NCBI GenBank assembly: GCA_031430855.1
Contig: JANPCG010000004.1
Location: forward strand, 10,845-74,844
DNA length: 64,000 bases
Reading direction: 5' to 3'
Source of the DNA: Candidatus Kaiserbacteria bacterium
GTDB taxonomy: Bacteria; Patescibacteriota; Minisyncoccia; Phycocordibacterales; UBA918
Below the pieces are notes generated by a model that saw nothing but the letters and a program-made list of their open reading frames with translations, had not been told where the DNA came from and searched no databases. Of the stretch, positions 604 through 53,868 are shown piece after piece. The first letter of the stretch is position 1; the number at the start of each line of letters is the position of its first letter. The translations under genes and the position numbers were made by a program.

Positions 604-665
604 GTTGTGCCTATGAATAGATAGTTTGCATCGCTCGTGCCTGTGCAAATGTTTAAAAATGAAGA

Positions 666-8288: not shown

Positions 8289-8294
8289 CGGCCT

Positions 8295-8406
8295 CCAAAA
8301 CGCACGCATCTACGTTGTTGCACTGCGGCAGTGGACGCTCACCGTACATCAGGTACGGCTCGTGCCCACTACCTGGCGCGCCTAGTAGCTGCATACGTTT
8401 TGAAAC
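8295..8406 (+). repeat. Intergenic repeat element copy A (CCGTAC-hairpin family), directly 3' of rpoC
   Basis: ccaaaacgcacgcatctacgttgttgc…caccgtacatcaggtacggctc…ctggcgcgcctagtagctgcatacgttttgaaac. It aligns end to end with the copy after rpoD and shares its core with the other copies. Confidence 0.8.
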
Positions 8407-8440
8407 CCTCTGAAGTTAGAACGTTAGAGTAAAATCTAAA

Positions 8441-8490
8441 ACAACAAACCGCTGACACCTTTAGGTGTCAGCGGTTTGTTGTGTATTTGA
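8441..8490. terminator. Strong bidirectional intrinsic terminator
   Basis: aacaacaaaccgctgacacc-ttta-ggtgtcagcggtttgttgtg perfect long hairpin, followed by tattt. Confidence 0.7.
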
Positions 8491-8509
8491 GAAAAGAGTG
8501 AGAATTTCG

Positions 8510-8529
8510 CACTATCATATATGATAGTG
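8510..8529. promoter_or_regulatory. Perfect 20-bp palindrome CACTATCATATATGATAGTG, a putative operator or protein-binding site (copy 1 of 2)
   Basis: Self-complementary 20-mer lying between two terminators. A 26-nt stretch (gcactatcatatatgatagtgRaatt) is identical to 52447..52472, upstream of atpD. Confidence 0.5.
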
Positions 8530-8555
8530 GAAATTTAAATAGTAAAAACGAAAAA

Positions 8556-8598
8556 CCGCCGATAGACTGGCGGATTTCCAGTTATCGGCGGCACACTG
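8556..8598 (-). terminator. Intrinsic terminator of the small minus-strand gene
   Basis: ccgccgata…ttatcggcgg inverted repeat immediately 3' of the minus-strand stop at 8602. Confidence 0.5.
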
Positions 8599-8601
8599 CC
8601 C

Positions 8602-8799
8602 TCATTGAGTTTTCAGATAGATCTCCAGGGCGAACATGATGTTGTCTTGAATCGTCTGGGTTATGGCCAAAAGCGCCAATACGACACCAACTGTTGCAGC
8701 AAGAAAGCGAACCCATGGAGCTTCGTTCTTGATCAATCCGCTTGCAAACATGCCAGCACAGGCTCCACTCATCCAAACGTAAATAAAAACGTACTCCAT
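8602..8799 (-). CDS. small hydrophobic (membrane) protein, 65 aa
   Basis: A GGAGGGA ribosome-binding site lies 7 nt upstream of the ATG. The product (MEYVFIYVWMSGACAGMFASGLIK…VVLALLAITQ) contains two predicted TM helices. The ORF is bounded by terminators. Confidence 0.4.
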   Translation of the reverse strand: MEYVFIYVWMSGACAGMFASGLIKNEAPWVRFLAATVGVVLALLAITQTIQDNIMFALEIYLKTQ

Positions 8800-23036: not shown

Positions 23037-23904
23037 CGTATTGGTCAGGGTGGGTAACTATGGCAAACCCTTTTTGCTGGGCCATTTCAGTAAGTGCGTT
23101 TACTTGCGCCGGTTCGTGTTCGATCCAGAGTTGTCCGTCGGGGTTTAGATGGGCTGGCGCAACTTCAATAATTTGCTTTATAATTTCCATTCCCTCGCTC
23201 CCTCCAAATAATGCCAGATGAGGCTCGTTCTCTATGACACTCGCTTCAACTGTGTATGCGGCTGCGTCTATATATGGTGGGTTAGTCAGTATGTAGTCAA
23301 ACCCGCGGTTTTGTTTGTGAATTTCTTTGTTGTGGGTCCCGATTTTTTCATCACCATATTCATCATATTGCTCTTTCAAAAATTCTCCCACGCCGCGAAC
23401 TTCACCCGCCACACTCGCGGCTACATCTTTTTGCAGTGCAGAAAACAAATCACTTTCTATAATTTCGGTGATAGAATCACCAAGTAAATTTATCTTGATA
23501 TTTTTTGTTATGGTTGAGAGGTGAGTCGGATCAATTTCGGCAAAGGTAACGTGTGCATTAGAGACCGCTTTTGCGACCGCAACTCCAATTGCGCCACTGC
23601 CAGCACAGAGGTCGAGAATTTTTAAGGAGGAGGCAAGACCTCCTTCGGTATTTTGTTCGAGGTCTCGCCTCGTACTTTGCGCTTGGATTGTAGTGATGGC
23701 TTGCTCGACCCAGTACTCAGTTTCGGGGCGGGGAATGAGGGGATGGGAGTCGAGATAAATGGTGCAGTTCAAGAAAGGTACTTGTCCGATGAGGTACGCT
23801 AAAGGTGTTCCATCTCGTAACTGTTCACAGTCAGCGTAAAAAGCTTCGGTTTCTACGCCGCCGTATTTTTCTTTGAGGAGCCACGCTGATTCTTGATTTT
23901 TCAT
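22999..23904 (-). CDS. prmC: release factor glutamine N5-methyltransferase PrmC (HemK)
   Basis: LAYLIGQVPFLNCTIYLDSHPLIPRPETE, SAM motif ILDLCAGSGAIGVA, catalytic NPPY (ILTNPPYI). The preferred start is 23904 (MKNQESAWLL…); the track's 24072 start adds 56 non-conserved residues. Confidence 0.85.
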   Translation of the reverse strand: MKNQESAWLLKEKYGGVETEAFYADCEQLRDGTPLAYLIGQVPFLNCTIYLDSHPLIPRPETEYWVEQAITTIQAQSTRRDLEQNTEGGLASSLKILDLCAGSGAIGVAVAKAVSNAHVTFAEIDPTHLSTITKNIKINLLGDSITEIIESDLFSALQKDVAASVAGEVRGVGEFLKEQYDEYGDEKIGTHNKEIHKQNRGFDYILTNPPYIDAAAYTVEASVIENEPHLALFGGSEGMEIIKQIIEVAPAHLNPDGQLWIEHEPAQVNALTEMAQQKGFAIVTHPDQYGVPRFSILSVAQ

Positions 23905-33525: not shown

Positions 33526-34329
33526 AGAAAAGAATCTGCCAATTAAAGGGAGTTGCTTATAGCGACCTATTTCGCTCCGATGAATGTGGTAGGCGAGGCC
33601 TACAATTGAGTGGAGTTTGGTAATCTCTTCGGCGAGACTTCGCATGTAAGTACCACTGCTTGCGGTGCAAACAAAAGTAGCGATAGTGAAATGGTCTGTC
33701 GACAGACCATTCTCTAGGAATTTTTTCCAATCAGCCCGCACATCAGTGCGTCTAAAGTCTCGACCTAGGGCTTTACTTTCGTCCGTTACGGGAGTTACTG
33801 TTTCAATTTTGGTGCTTACTTCGGAATAAATCTCAACACGGGTTTTGGTTATTACATTTTTGAGTCGAAGTGCGTAGACGGTAGACGTTTGAGTGGGGAT
33901 CGTAATTTCACCTAGTCTACCTTCCAGTGTCCAGACGTGTAAGGGTTTGCCCCGTACCGTTTTAGAGGAGAAGTGGGGGTAGGGAAGGGAGATGTTGCCG
34001 GTGAGGGTACGGGCTGCGGACGTAAGTGACGTGTGGGTTGGAGTAGGTATGACTTCAGAGAAACGGAGTCTTCCGAGCACATCACCGGTATCAGAACCTA
34101 CACCAAACAAAACTGAGAACTCGTATCGTTTATCGAGACCATGGTACTCAGATTGTTTTTTGCACTCGTCGCCAATTAAAACTAGGAGTTTACCCGAGGC
34201 CATCGGGTCGAGACGCCCGGCGTATGAGAGAGGAACACCCGTAAATTCAGGGTGAGATTTGCGCCAGAGCTCAGCACATTCCAAAGGTGTTTGTCCTACC
34301 GTTTTTTCTAAAACAACATATTTCTGCAT
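33514..34329 (-). CDS. truB: tRNA pseudouridine(55) synthase TruB
   Basis: …VPLSYAGRLDPMASGKLLVLIGDECKKQSEYHGLDKRYEFSVLFGVGSDTGDVLG… matches the TruB catalytic-Asp motif (G..LDP.A.G.L…G.ATK…DK.Y). The preferred start is 34329 (MQKYVVLEK…). Confidence 0.78.
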   Translation of the reverse strand: MQKYVVLEKTVGQTPLECAELWRKSHPEFTGVPLSYAGRLDPMASGKLLVLIGDECKKQSEYHGLDKRYEFSVLFGVGSDTGDVLGRLRFSEVIPTPTHTSLTSAARTLTGNISLPYPHFSSKTVRGKPLHVWTLEGRLGEITIPTQTSTVYALRLKNVITKTRVEIYSEVSTKIETVTPVTDESKALGRDFRRTDVRADWKKFLENGLSTDHFTIATFVCTASSGTYMRSLAEEITKLHSIVGLAYHIHRSEIGRYKQLPLIGRFFSKRY

Positions 34330-36195: not shown

Positions 36196-37590
36196 CTATT
36201 TTGTGACGAAAGTGAGAGCCTGCCCTCGTTTATCAGCCCGTCCCGTTCGGCCAATTCGGTGAACATAATCTTCATACGCATTTGGAAGGTCGTAGTTAAT
36301 GACGTGTGAGACATCATCAACGTGGATACCACGAGCAGCGACGTCAGTTGCAACGAGTACCTGAACCCGGCCCAATTTAAAGTTCTGGAGGGCGCGCTGT
36401 CTCTGTGGGTGACTCTTGTTACCGTGAATGGCATCGGACTTGATACCAGCGCGAGTGAGTTCTTGAGAAAGTTTCTCCACGCTATGCTTCATTGCGCCAA
36501 AGATGATGACGCGAGTAAAGTCCGCCTTCTTTAAGAGTGCAACGAGCGTATCAAACTTGGTGTGCGGTTCGTAATACACTACGTCTTGCGTGATACTGCC
36601 GGTAATATCTTTCTTACGAACGGAAATCGTAATTGGATCATTCATGAATTCATGAATCATTCCTTTTACACTGTCAGACATAGTTGCAGAGAAGAAGAGG
36701 GTTTCGTGTGGATCAGGGACGTCTTTCAAAATCTTTCGCATATCATGGATGAATCCCATATCGAGCATACGGTCAGCTTCATCAAGTACGATGGTTGAAA
36801 ATCCGCCCGGTTTGATGTGTCCACGGTCAATGAGGTCTTGAACGCGTCCTGGAGTACCAATAATAAAATGATTCTGGCGACGGAGGCCCTGAATCTGTGG
36901 GCGAATATTCATTCCACCAACACAAACAGTTGAGAAGATTTTCATTTTCTCAGTCAGTCGCTTGAGTTCCTGTTCTACTTGAATTGCGAGTTCGCGGGTA
37001 GGTGCGAGAATAAGTGTTTGACGACTATATTGCTTGAGTGTCTTGTTAATGAGTGGTACCAAGAACGCTGCCGTTTTACCGGTCCCCGTTTGGGCTAATC
37101 CAACCACATCACGACCATCAAGGATGTGAGGAATAATTTGATCTTGAATTGGTGAGGGAATAGTTAGTCCCATGTTGGTAATCGTAGTTACGAGAGGCTG
37201 TTCAAGGCCAAAGGTTTTGAAAGTATGCTTCGCTTCATAGACTTCTTCTGGTGTCGTATCGGCCGGGTTAAGGTTGATGTAGCGAGACACGTCAAAGGTT
37301 TGCATTTTGCGTCCCCCTCGACTCCCTCCACCGCTGCGACTGCCGCCACGACTCCCTCCACCTCGACTACTGCTACCTCCAAAAGAGGGTCGACTTGATG
37401 ACGGGCGATTAGAACTACTACTAAAACTGCGACGTGGTCCGTGACTAGCGCTACTTGGAGCAATTTGACGTGAGCCACTGCGGTCGCTAAAGCGGCGGGC
37501 TGCGCCATTTCCAGAACCACTATCACTCGTTGAGCGGGGGCGACTAGAAAAGCTAGGTTTCCGACTAGGTCGGCTTGTTGATGAATCCAT
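36196..37590 (-). CDS. DEAD-box ATP-dependent RNA helicase with a C-terminal Arg/Gly/Ser-rich tail
   Basis: Q-motif, Walker A AQTGTGKT, DEAD (VLDEADRM), SAT, HRIGRTGR. The C-terminal roughly 90 aa are GGSRGG/RSFSS repeats. Confidence 0.9.
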   Translation of the reverse strand: MDSSTSRPSRKPSFSSRPRSTSDSGSGNGAARRFSDRSGSRQIAPSSASHGPRRSFSSSSNRPSSSRPSFGGSSSRGGGSRGGSRSGGGSRGGRKMQTFDVSRYINLNPADTTPEEVYEAKHTFKTFGLEQPLVTTITNMGLTIPSPIQDQIIPHILDGRDVVGLAQTGTGKTAAFLVPLINKTLKQYSRQTLILAPTRELAIQVEQELKRLTEKMKIFSTVCVGGMNIRPQIQGLRRQNHFIIGTPGRVQDLIDRGHIKPGGFSTIVLDEADRMLDMGFIHDMRKILKDVPDPHETLFFSATMSDSVKGMIHEFMNDPITISVRKKDITGSITQDVVYYEPHTKFDTLVALLKKADFTRVIIFGAMKHSVEKLSQELTRAGIKSDAIHGNKSHPQRQRALQNFKLGRVQVLVATDVAARGIHVDDVSHVINYDLPNAYEDYVHRIGRTGRADKRGQALTFVTK

Positions 37591-37904: not shown

Positions 37905-39026
37905 ATGAAAGAAGCCTTTTCTTTAAAAGACCACCTGTTTAACCAAGCGTCAGTATCATATTTGGCTGATTTATTTGTGGCTACCGACCCGCAATTTAAT
38001 AAAAAGAAGTTTGTTGTTCAGGTAGTAGGTAGGTTTCCTCAATTAGAGCTCAAGGAGCGTATCGGATGGATTACCGAAGTGCTAAGTACCTATTTACCCA
38101 CGGACCCTGGTGCTGCGCTGAAACTAATCGTTGCTGCTCTACCTACTCCCTTAGATCCCAACAAAACCGATGATGATTTTGGAAGATTTATTTTTGCACC
38201 CTTGGGTGAGTTTGTGGTTCGATATGGCTGTACAAAAAAGTATCTAAAGCAATCGCTCGCCACCTTGAAGCAGTTGACGATGCGGTTTTCGATGGAGGAC
38301 GCAATGCGGACATTTTTGAATACCTTTCCAACCGAAACATTAGCCGAATATGACAGATGGGTCAACGATAAAAATTATCACGTTAGACGTTTGGTAAGTG
38401 AAAGTGCGCGACCGAGTTTACCGTGGTCTCAAAAAATTGGGATTGACTATAAGGTGGTTATAAAATATCCTGATCTTCTGTATGCGGATTCAACTCGGTA
38501 TGTCGTGCGTTCGGTCGCAAATCATCTGAACGATGTCAGTAAAAAAGATTCGGAACTGGTGGTATCGACACTCAAGCGCTGGCATAAAGAGAAAAACCAA
38601 AATCCACTCGAACTTGATTGGCTTACGCGACACGCGCTACGAACGCTGGTAAAGTGGGGAGACATAAAGGCTCTGGCACTCCTGGGGTATACTACACACA
38701 CGGTACCGGTCGTTTCAAACTTCGTAGTGCCTAAAAAAGTAGCAAAAGGTGATCGGTTGGTATTCTCTTTTGATGTAATCTCGAGCATTTCCCAAAACCT
38801 ACTGATTGACTACGTCATTGATTTTGTAAAATTAAATGGCACAACGAAACCAAAAGTATTTAAGATTAAAAAAATAATGGCACTCCCTAATGCCATTATT
38901 TCAGTTCAAAAAAATCATCATCTTAAAGCTGATGCAACTACCTTTAAACTCAATGCTGGAACCCATTGCCTCACGATTCAAATAAACGGCCAAAAATTAA
39001 CGACTGTCCAATTCGAGATTGTTTAA
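37905..39026 (+). CDS. DNA alkylation repair (AlkC/AlkD-like HEAT-repeat) family protein, tentative
   Basis: 373-aa predicted all-helical repeat protein. It has some family-like segments (…NDKNYHVRRLVSESARPSLPW…). An extended -10 box TGATATACT lies at about 37872. Its neighbour is an ATL protein. The assignment rests on weak sequence recollection plus context. Confidence 0.4.
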   Translation: MKEAFSLKDHLFNQASVSYLADLFVATDPQFNKKKFVVQVVGRFPQLELKERIGWITEVLSTYLPTDPGAALKLIVAALPTPLDPNKTDDDFGRFIFAPLGEFVVRYGCTKKYLKQSLATLKQLTMRFSMEDAMRTFLNTFPTETLAEYDRWVNDKNYHVRRLVSESARPSLPWSQKIGIDYKVVIKYPDLLYADSTRYVVRSVANHLNDVSKKDSELVVSTLKRWHKEKNQNPLELDWLTRHALRTLVKWGDIKALALLGYTTHTVPVVSNFVVPKKVAKGDRLVFSFDVISSISQNLLIDYVIDFVKLNGTTKPKVFKIKKIMALPNAIISVQKNHHLKADATTFKLNAGTHCLTIQINGQKLTTVQFEIV

Positions 39027-39029
39027 ACG

Positions 39030-39090
39030 ATGTGGAGTAAAAGAAGGAGGCAAGACTTCCTACTGGGGGAGGTCTTGCCTCCTTCTTAGT
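39030..39090. terminator. Strong bidirectional terminator
   Basis: aagaaggaggcaagacttcc…ggtcttgcctccttctt, a roughly 17-bp stem between convergent genes. Confidence 0.7.
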
Positions 39091-39095
39091 TTTGC

Positions 39096-39419
39096 TTAAT
39101 TGAGTTCGGAGAAGTCGTAGAAGATTTCTTCAAAATCGATGATGAAGCCGCGGGAGTTTAATGTAATACCTTCACGTTTATACAGTTTCAAGCGCACGTT
39201 CTCATATTCAGGATTCATCCAGACACGACCGCCGGCATACACAATCCGGTGCCACGGAATAACTTTAGGATTAGGTGCTTTTCCGAGGATGCTCGAGATA
39301 CTTCGCGCGGCCATTCCGCCACCACCAGCGGCTTTGGCAATCGCCCCATAGGTCGTTACTCTTCCGGCTGGTATAGCTAGGGCGAGTTCGTAGACACGCT
39401 GACTAAATTCTCGAGCCAT
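39096..39419 (-). CDS. alkyltransferase-like (ATL) protein: O6-alkylguanine-binding, catalytically inactive MGMT homologue
   Basis: MGMT/Ogt C-terminal DNA-binding domain fold sequence with PWHRIV in place of the canonical PCHRV, so Trp replaces the alkyl-acceptor Cys as in Atl1/YbaZ. The helix-turn-helix region is TYGAIAKAAGGGGMAARS. A TTG alternative start exists at 39443. Confidence 0.7.
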   Translation of the reverse strand: MAREFSQRVYELALAIPAGRVTTYGAIAKAAGGGGMAARSISSILGKAPNPKVIPWHRIVYAGGRVWMNPEYENVRLKLYKREGITLNSRGFIIDFEEIFYDFSELN

Positions 39420-52050: not shown

Positions 52051-52374
52051 ATGAAAAATAAATCAACACAAACTCATATTTTTAATATAGTACTCGATGA
52101 CATGTATTTTTTTCATATCGCCGGACTGTCTACGTTGGCATGGATTTTTTCGACAATTCTCTTGATATTTATCTTAGGTAAAGAAGTAGTTGCACTATAT
52201 TTGATACTAGCTTTTACGTACCCAATTGCTTTAATAATTCAGTTGTTTCTTTTATATACAGTTTCGTATTTTAAGAAAAAAAATATGATGAACCAACTAA
52301 AATTTGCATCACTTTTGTCTATAGCCTGTTTGCCAATAGCGGTTCTCGTTTCTTACATAATGGTTTTCATGTAA
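52051..52374 (+). CDS. hypothetical small membrane protein inserted between atpG and atpD (AT-rich)
   Basis: 107-aa ORF with three hydrophobic segments. By eye it is markedly more AT-rich than the flanking atp genes. No ribosome-binding site. It breaks the conserved atpG-atpD adjacency. Confidence 0.4.
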   Translation: MKNKSTQTHIFNIVLDDMYFFHIAGLSTLAWIFSTILLIFILGKEVVALYLILAFTYPIALIIQLFLLYTVSYFKKKNMMNQLKFASLLSIACLPIAVLVSYIMVFM

Positions 52375-52383
52375 CGGTTGTAG

Positions 52384-53868
<1,485 letters not shown>

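Follow-up and report, generated by a model that had tools for sequence, protein, structure and literature searches.

Regulators of the TrpR family bind 20-bp palindromes, with the consensus cacTTTAnnnnnnTAAAgtg for HisR and TGTAcTnGTnnACnAgTACA for TrpR (PMC9413887). About half of the hisR genes are preceded by such a site and are autoregulated (PMC9413887). We describe here a perfect 20-bp palindrome (CACTATCATATATGATAGTG) found twice in a 64,000-nt stretch of a Candidatus Kaiserbacteria contig (GenBank JANPCG010000004.1, positions 10,845 to 74,844; the whole stretch is hereafter called the window). Copy 1 is located in the gap between rpoC and dnaG and copy 2 upstream of atpD, the gene for ATP synthase beta. 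Both copies are most likely operators of a Patescibacteria-wide TrpR/YerC-like (PF01371) regulator. To our knowledge, little has been reported on transcriptional regulation in Patescibacteria (candidate phyla radiation, CPR), and no description of such a regulator or motif in Patescibacteria was found in the literature searched. The protein family and the logic of the 20-bp dyad were known already. What is new is the clade, the C-terminal extension of the protein, the bracketing of its own gene by sites, and the way in which sites are placed and extended at gene ends.

HisR (YerC/YecD) of Firmicutes shares the PF01371 domain with the Patescibacteria protein. The operators are also alike: both are perfect 20-bp dyads with cac...gtg ends (cacTTTAnnnnnnTAAAgtg compared with CACTATCATATATGATAGTG and its variant TACTTTCATATATGAAAGTA), often located 5' of the regulator's own gene. 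When the family profile was compared with the PDB, the closest solved structures were of the YerC type (3kor, 3frw and 3g1c, E ~1e-10), and E. coli TrpR was matched at 1e-5. The differences from HisR are of several kinds. The Patescibacteria proteins scored below the cutoff of the YerC/YecD model TIGR02531 (24.8 and 18.2 bits; cutoff 42.2) and carry an extra conserved C-terminal segment of ~45 aa. The ATATAT centre of the operator is invariant here and free in HisR, no histidine genes stand beside the sites, and operators are also found past the gene, at gene 3' ends and inside genes. Likeness to E. coli TrpR was seen in the predicted fold. The AlphaFold2 (AF2) model (pLDDT 89.7) had 1trr, 1tro and 6f9k as top Foldseek matches in the PDB (probability 1.00) and superposed on TrpR and TrpR–operator complexes with a root-mean-square deviation of ~2 Å over ~80 residues (target-normalised TM-score 0.63–0.75). 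It contains an additional long helix (residues 93–122), followed by the conserved C-terminal tail NPFG..ALKKKYPLHFLLFPWPK. However, scores were far under the cutoff of the TrpR model TIGR01321 (21.8 and 26.2 bits; cutoff 67.25), and the E. coli trp operator (TGTACTAGTTAACTAGTACA) differs from the Patescibacteria operator in sequence and in half-site spacing. Since both the TrpR and the YerC/YecD models were under their cutoffs, the Patescibacteria proteins were placed in a separate subfamily. The Pfam and NCBI-model scores and the fold refer to proteins of relatives, not of the window. The organisms that carry these proteins are not known to make tryptophan.

CIRCE, the controlling inverted repeat read by HrcA, offers a third comparison. 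It is likewise a perfect inverted repeat kept over deep phylogenetic distances and read by one conserved repressor. Once transcribed, CIRCE functions as an RNA hairpin as well, and the Patescibacteria sites described below have a similarly double appearance. In contrast, HrcA belongs to an unrelated protein family, and CIRCE precedes the genes of a coherent heat-shock regulon, is not placed at 3' ends and is without locus-specific extensions of its arms.

The palindrome in the window and in related genomes

The two copies were located by exact match search. No further match was found in the window at up to 3 mismatches, half-site and relaxed-core searches of the window returned only the same two copies, and only these 2 sites were present at 6 or fewer mismatches across 79 kb of the source contig. 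The sequence did not occur in 100 dinucleotide-preserving shuffles. The proposal of an earlier note on this DNA, that a perfect 20-bp palindrome occurs twice and beyond chance, was thus borne out by exact matching and shuffling. Two of its figures were revised. The 26-nt identity it gave was a miscount: the exact stretch common to both copies is 21 nt (GCACTATCATATATGATAGTG; a G precedes both), the next base is G in copy 1 and A in copy 2, and 26 nt are reached only with a 1-nt gap. The distance from the palindrome to atpD, given as 18 nt, is 17 nt (ATG at 52486). Its placing of copy 1 between two terminators was correct, with the rpoC hairpin on the left and the terminator of a convergent small open reading frame (ORF) on the right.

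Neither copy has the features of an intrinsic terminator, since the core stem holds 3 G-C pairs and no T-run is found on the strand of the upstream gene; a CTTTTT is present only on the untranscribed minus strand of copy 2. Copy 1 pairs 6–7 extra bases past a 1-nt bulge (8502–8536; RNA fold -15.3 kcal/mol). Copy 2 has no such extension (-9.1 kcal/mol). An Rfam scan of the whole window returned no family at gathering score, and a scan of the window for tRNA and tmRNA returned none.

The 18-nt core ACTATCATATATGATAGT was then searched by exact scan in one genome per species (185,579 species, 596 Gb). It was found at 108 loci, ~94 of which belong to Patescibacteria by record title or to metagenome-assembled genomes (MAGs) syntenic with them (Saccharibacteria, Paceibacteria/Parcubacteria, Kaiserbacteria, Campbellbacteria and others). 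The 14 loci from other phyla are near the ~9 expected by chance for an 18-mer in 596 Gb. Several genomes hold 6–8 exact copies of the core. Site density is 2 per 79 kb here, similar to the rough figure of ~1 per 34 kb in metagenome loci away from the regulator gene described below. Palindromes at positions orthologous to those of the window were found 5' of atpD in L059 and after rpoC in L116, L096, L109 and L013. The earlier note had named, among the grounds for dropping the idea, a motif limited to these two sites genome-wide and absent from orthologous positions in relatives; the motif is instead present in many related genomes and at such positions.

The adjoining TrpR-like gene and its co-variation with the sites

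At loci with two or three copies of the core, a spacing of 476–524 bp recurred, and a gene was found between the copies. It encodes a ~140-aa protein of the Trp_repressor family (PF01371; 48.1 bits in L013 and 44.2 bits in L040, cutoff 27). This gene directly adjoins the palindrome in 15 of the 108 motif loci, and 112 of 114 homologues in databases were already annotated as PF01371. As a control for the bias of an exact-motif search, metagenome contigs were searched by protein alignment, which gave 80 loci with 67 distinct genes. Palindromes were accepted in these loci when centred on ATATAT with arms of 8 or more and at most 1 mismatch. An upstream palindrome was centred within 45 nt of the ATG in 56 of the 66 genes with enough 5' sequence (mode 17 nt), and a downstream palindrome lay within 130 nt past the gene in 55 of the 60 with enough 3' sequence. 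The background rate elsewhere in these loci was 0.034 per 175 nt. In relatives, one palindrome typically ends 4–8 nt before the ATG, one is often located ~100 nt further upstream, and one follows the stop codon. At the regulator gene, the right arm of the dyad gives a TAGNAT-type -10 element at -12 to -7.

The arms vary by lineage (e.g. CTATCATATATGATAG, CTTATCATATATGATAAG, TACTTCTATATATAGAAGTA, TTACCATATATGGTAA, CTTTGATATATCAAAG and CTATGATATATCATAG), and the upstream and downstream copies of one locus carry identical lineage-specific arms. A plain terminator would give no reason for such a match. Co-variation was measured by aligning the 67 proteins against the half-site beside each, with mutual information and a neighbour-joining tree. 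The top mutual information (0.93 bit) was obtained between residue N77 (in VGPNTV, the first residue of the recognition helix) and the operator base at +/-4 from the centre. N was paired with C in 27 of 29 cases and D with G in 13 of 13; A, G or R went with CC or CT. At least four independent residue/base switches were counted on the tree. Within the N/C clade, Q is paired with G in L144, and N changed to G jointly with TTTCATA to TTCTATA in L141, L135, L136 and L139, the sisters of which retain N. Within the D/G clade, A is paired with C in L175. In the aligned sequences, co-variation of this kind is the mark of a protein that reads the bases directly. A co-varying residue at the start of the recognition helix is also a likeness to E. 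coli TrpR; N77 presumably corresponds to the Ile79-Ala80-Thr81 region, which enters the major groove.

Protein and sites together show a PF01371 score, a TrpR-like all-helical helix-turn-helix fold in the AF2 model, a 20-bp dyad, and association and co-evolution of gene and site. The reading of both window copies as operators of this family builds on four computed results (site–gene association, protein–operator co-variation, the TrpR fold, and conservation at orthologous positions), from which we infer binding by the protein. The suggestion of an operator for a dimeric DNA-binding protein, made before the family was known, is supported by them, and the family can now be named as TrpR/YerC (PF01371) through the adjoining gene, co-variation and orthology. 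It is not HisR, given the TIGR02531 score and the lack of his genes by the sites. Other known boxes were compared and rejected. tetO shares the CTATCA/TGATAG half-sites and has a 1-bp spacer versus 4 bp here; the NrdR box has similar outer bases and is 16 bp long, with a misfit in length and spacing; Fur and DnaA boxes do not fit in spacing and length, and the adjoining gene is of the TrpR family. What emerges is a conserved pair of regulator and site, for which both a specificity residue and a target (ATP synthase beta) can be predicted. The pair is present in Saccharibacteria, which include cultivable and genetically tractable strains.

History of the rpoC-dnaG gap and the atpD promoter

In the MAG GFS_3221 (JAYTKW), whose atpD region is ~82% identical in nucleotides to that of the window and whose rpoC has the same length as in the window (1227 aa), the regulator gene (P0001) sits between rpoC and dnaG. 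Palindromes are located past its stop codon, ending 4 nt before its ATG, and ~110 nt further upstream by the terminator of a convergent ORF. The order in the Saccharibacterium locus L013 is rpoC, palindrome, regulator gene (minus strand), palindrome, palindrome, dnaG, which suggests that the position of the cassette in the rpoC-dnaG gap is ancient. After rpoC, the window shows a terminator, the palindrome, a second terminator, a small ORF on the minus strand and dnaG. Comparison of copy 1 with the distal operator of GFS_3221 gave a matching arrangement, in which the core is an island of identity and the flanks are diverged. The layout of a palindrome between two terminators was also found 3' of rpoC in L109 and L096. 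The closest relative among the loci is JAZKIJ (82–83% nucleotide identity in rpoBC). In JAZKIJ and the similar MAG JAIYEC, the palindrome is kept after rpoC and the regulator gene is not in the gap; the JAZKIJ regulator adjoins transketolase (tkt) and a PfkB kinase, and in two more genomes the regulator is located within a gap-rpiB-rpe-tkt cluster.

Copy 1 is thus most likely a retained distal operator, the regulator gene having been lost from the rpoC-dnaG slot in the genome of the window. The earlier note had thought of a tiny transcription unit or a site for a partition or nucleoid protein; synteny points instead to a surviving distal operator. The regulator is likely encoded elsewhere in this genome, because both copies are perfect despite diverged flanks and because JAZKIJ has the gene elsewhere.

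Two observations on these regions may be added. A TrpR-like gene was seen in or beside the gap-rpiB-rpe-tkt cluster, near the PfkB kinase, in several Paceibacteria-like genomes (L201–L206, L114, L040). This pentose-phosphate cluster is a second recurrent context of the regulator and might be a hint at its ligand or regulon; the cluster was not found in the window. In JAZKIJ (L096:1750-2560, JAZKIJ010000005.1), a ~190-nt duplication of the upstream region and 5' end of dnaG flanks a palindrome and a minus-strand gene, as if an insertion or rearrangement in the rpoC-dnaG gap had left a scar.

For copy 2, the same palindrome was found 19 nt 5' of atpD in GFS_3221 (L059). The ~34 nt before copy 2 are identical in the window and in L059, and the sequence further upstream is diverged. 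This segment probably represents the end of the preceding unit, the atpD -35 region, or both. In the window, the start regions of rpoC, dnaG, rpoD, atpA-H and pgi are without a Shine-Dalgarno sequence and A/T-rich upstream, and -10-like hexamers stand 11–17 nt before the ATG (e.g. TATACT at dnaG and TATAGT at rpoD). This suggests that near-leaderless transcripts are the norm in the window. The dyad of copy 2 spans -18 to -37 relative to the atpD ATG. With genes that are near-leaderless, a dyad at this distance falls on the core promoter, so that copy 2 plausibly overlaps that of atpD. Repression of atpD through promoter occlusion may reasonably be supposed, and TATGAT/TATCAT within the dyad might double as a -10 element.

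It was also considered that the dyad is merely a bidirectional -10 element, or the site of an unrelated protein (partition, nucleoid or restriction-modification controller). TATGAT and TATCAT match TATAAT at 5 of 6 positions on both strands, and the genes here have close -10 boxes. But a mere -10 element or an unrelated protein does not explain a motif with ~2 sites per 79 kb, found between convergent terminators, co-varying with a residue of a TrpR-family protein and bracketing the TrpR-like gene in most of the 67 independent loci. Both explanations were judged extremely improbable.

The following mechanism is proposed for the operator reading. The regulator would be a ~140-aa protein composed of the Trp_repressor domain and the conserved C-terminal extension. 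On the model of TrpR and HisR, it would bind as a homodimer, with one recognition helix per half-site (CTATCA / TGATAG) around the invariant ATATAT centre. The palindrome over the -10 region of the near-leaderless promoter of its own gene would lead to autorepression. After loss of the gene from the rpoC-dnaG gap, the distal operator would have remained as copy 1. Copy 2, on the core promoter of atpD, would allow repression of atpD-atpC by a regulator supplied from elsewhere in the genome, as in JAZKIJ. Such a scheme would account for two oddities of the window, the isolated dyad between terminators after rpoC and the dyad in the atp operon.

The atp operons also bear on whether the palindrome is mobile. 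The insert between atpG and atpD is ~1 kb in L059 versus ORF107 in the window, and in two other lineages (L079, L028) a palindrome and a small ORF are located between atpA and atpG. A mobile element of the repetitive extragenic palindrome (REP) or miniature inverted-repeat transposable element (MITE) type, with the TrpR-like gene as its associated protein, could have been inserted after rpoC and, together with small ORFs, into the atp operon. The atp palindrome does accompany inserted small ORFs at different junctions (window and L059 versus L079 and L028), and in JAZKIJ the palindrome and a gene are flanked by the duplicated 5' end of dnaG. Likeness to REP/REPIN sequences and their REP-associated tyrosine transposase (RAYT) genes is seen in short palindromes located mainly in 3' intergenic space and in a protein gene flanked by repeats on both sides. 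However, the protein is a bare helix-turn-helix without a catalytic domain and without the HUH transposase of RAYTs. Copy number is in the tens versus hundreds (2 copies per 79 kb here). The shared sequence is limited to a 16–20-bp core (18–21 nt; 21 nt between the window copies), and no target-site duplications were seen. Gene and sites are syntenic across classes, without a sign of mobility: the same rpoC-dnaG slot is used in Saccharibacteria and Kaiserbacteria-like lineages, which argues for vertical inheritance of the gene, and sites stand at orthologous positions. A mobile origin was therefore considered very improbable. Small, mostly hydrophobic ORFs beside the palindrome in atp operons (ORF107 in the window, L059:5900-6970, L079:3919-4289 and L028:869-1200) could be lineage-specific accessory subunits or insertions.

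Table 1. Features of the window around the two palindromes and at two decayed sites
Feature	Position	Strand	Remarks
Palindrome copy 1	8510..8529	.	Putative orphan operator in the rpoC-dnaG gap; exact match, fold
rpoC terminator hairpin, 19-bp stem, left of copy 1	8441..8482	+	
Terminator of the convergent small ORF (8602-8799, minus strand), right of copy 1	8556..8598	-	
Palindrome copy 2	52449..52468	.	Putative operator 17 nt 5' of the atpD start codon; exact match
atpD (ATP synthase beta)	52486..53868	+	Candidate regulated gene; translation, Pfam context
ORF107, hydrophobic, 107 aa, inserted between atpG and atpD, 5' of copy 2	52051..52374	+	No Pfam family
Conserved segment CTTTCACTACTCAGTGGTACTGAGTCATTATTAA with small hairpin, just 5' of copy 2	52411..52444	+	
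Decayed relic CCTATGAATAGATAGTTTG after trmD	610..628	+	Intact in JAZKIJ
Decayed relic TTCTATCACCGAAATTATAGAA within prmC	23455..23476	-	Half-sites visible, spacer 2 nt longer; intact in JAZKIJ, PAMC01 and JAYVHQ

Site placement, extension and points against an operator

Several results weigh against a regulator acting through operators in this genome. Hidden Markov model searches of six-frame translations, covering the window and in all 79 kb of the source contig (about a third of one contig), returned no TrpR-like gene, and the syntenic slot is empty. Two sites intact in JAZKIJ, after trmD and in prmC, are decayed here. Copy 1 lies between convergent terminators, with no promoter to control. 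Placement was counted from crude ORF calls on the motif-first loci (CPR sites): 31 sites were between convergent 3' ends, 45 in tandem gaps, 13 between divergent 5' ends, 16 in ORFs and 8 at locus edges, and 9–10 of the 13 at divergent 5' ends adjoin the regulator gene itself. Genes whose start codon has a site no more than 100 nt 5' of it form no coherent regulon. They include rarA (twice), ruvB, uvrC, dnaG, mnmA, rpmE and genes for an EVE-domain protein, a glycosyltransferase and an aminotransferase; atpD likewise adjoins a site, and no his gene does. The prmC palindrome is read in frame as TIIYDS; in JAZKIJ, PAMC01 and JAYVHQ it is exactly conserved within coding sequence that is otherwise rich in indels. 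Finally, about half of the sites have locus-specific complementary flanks, which a DNA-binding dimer would not need.

Among the 16 intragenic sites, 13 are read as TIIYDS in frame within long ORFs, and the other 3 fall in a different frame, within short ORFs that are doubtful. The prmC palindrome is probably a real site and not a codon coincidence, given its conservation; the remaining intragenic sites may be coincidences.

The empty slot and the decayed sites would be explained if the regulator had been wholly lost from the genome, leaving both copies as non-functional leftovers. The five traced homologues (P0004, P0075, P0086, P0007 and P0003) all come from other assemblies or samples, in keeping with such a loss. 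Both copies, however, are perfect at 20 of 20 positions between strongly diverged flanks, and uniform neutral decay is unlike a pattern of two perfect and two wrecked sites. In JAZKIJ, moreover, the slot likewise lacks the gene and retains a palindrome, and the regulator is encoded beside tkt/pfkB. Complete loss of the regulator was thus rated unlikely, and functional operators for a regulator encoded elsewhere in the genome were preferred.

The complementary flanks were analysed for pairing. Five or more extra Watson-Crick pairs (maximum 20) were found at 53 of 113 sites. Over 12 flanking positions, 64.2% of cells pair, versus 43.1 +/- 1.4% after shuffling (0/500) and 41–46% in slid controls, and compensatory changes were found in all 12 pairs. 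Extension is commonest between convergent genes (21/31, 68%). T-runs of 4 or more in the direction of the upstream gene follow 36 of 63 extended sites versus 5 of 51 bare sites, and extended hairpins fold at ~-22 kcal/mol. Some extended sites resemble intrinsic terminators that work in both directions and carry the operator at their apex. On this evidence, the palindrome could be an RNA or single-stranded DNA hairpin, i.e. a terminator or insulator stem-loop with a conserved apex, free of protein or recognised by one. This does not account for the clustering of sites on the regulator gene. Nor does it account for the recognition-helix residue that tracks base +/-4, for which hairpin pairing alone is insufficient. 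Long palindromes also stand 5' of the regulator gene, where they cannot be its terminators: in 24 of 59 the arms measure 14 or more, and arms reach 23 and sometimes include the ATG. Past the regulator gene, a T-run on the gene strand was found at 10 of 61 palindromes, and the idea that this palindrome is the terminator of the gene was dropped. Long palindromes 5' of the gene and few T-runs 3' of it indicate that terminator function is not the whole story. In the window, copy 1 is little extended and copy 2 not at all, both lack a U-tract on the transcribed strand, and copy 1 is already flanked by two conventional GC-rich terminators. A hairpin as the sole explanation was consequently considered quite improbable.

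Many operator palindromes are perfect over 28–58 bp, with arms of up to 29 (L121–L200; e.g. L125 2455-2494, L167 ~260-300 and L182 ~376-424). Bacteria do not normally maintain such long perfect palindromes stably, and template switching during replication is a known mutational route for quasi-palindromes. The long perfect arms may reflect growth by template switching, or a function as hairpin or cruciform. The placement at gene ends would possibly be that of a roadblock or insulator. Tentatively, and with more doubt than confidence, it can be proposed that roughly 20–30 sites per genome exist phylum-wide, mostly at gene 3' ends, between convergent terminators and even within genes, with many grown into perfect palindromes of 30–58 bp, and that the TrpR-fold protein acts mainly as a roadblock/insulator or as a chromosome organiser. 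Such a protein might recognise extruded hairpins or cruciforms and not be a metabolite-sensing repressor. Copy 1, in the transcriptionally silent gap that follows the strongly expressed rpoBC operon, would in that case be a site at work and not a leftover. Whichever of these applies, the question is raised of why the conserved sites of a TrpR-fold protein stand mostly at gene ends and grow into long perfect palindromes.

At the convergent gap at ~39,020–39,100 of the window, L071 has a palindrome hairpin where the window has a conventional GC-rich terminator. The difference is best read as a replacement and not as an insertion into a shared hairpin.

Two further perfect palindromes, unrelated in sequence to the operator, were noted in the window: AATGGTCTGTCGACAGACCATT (22 bp, 33690–33711) and ATTCATGAATTCATGAAT (18 bp, 36640–36657). 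The ~130 nt from the rpoC stop codon to the terminator (window 8290–8417) are conserved in three related genomes and fold as one long hairpin. With the counterparts in L116 (9170-9325, minus strand) and L096 (1255-1432), RNAalifold gave 40 pairs, 15 of them with compensatory double changes. No Rfam match was obtained for this hairpin, which is a candidate structured RNA in the 3' untranslated region of rpoC.

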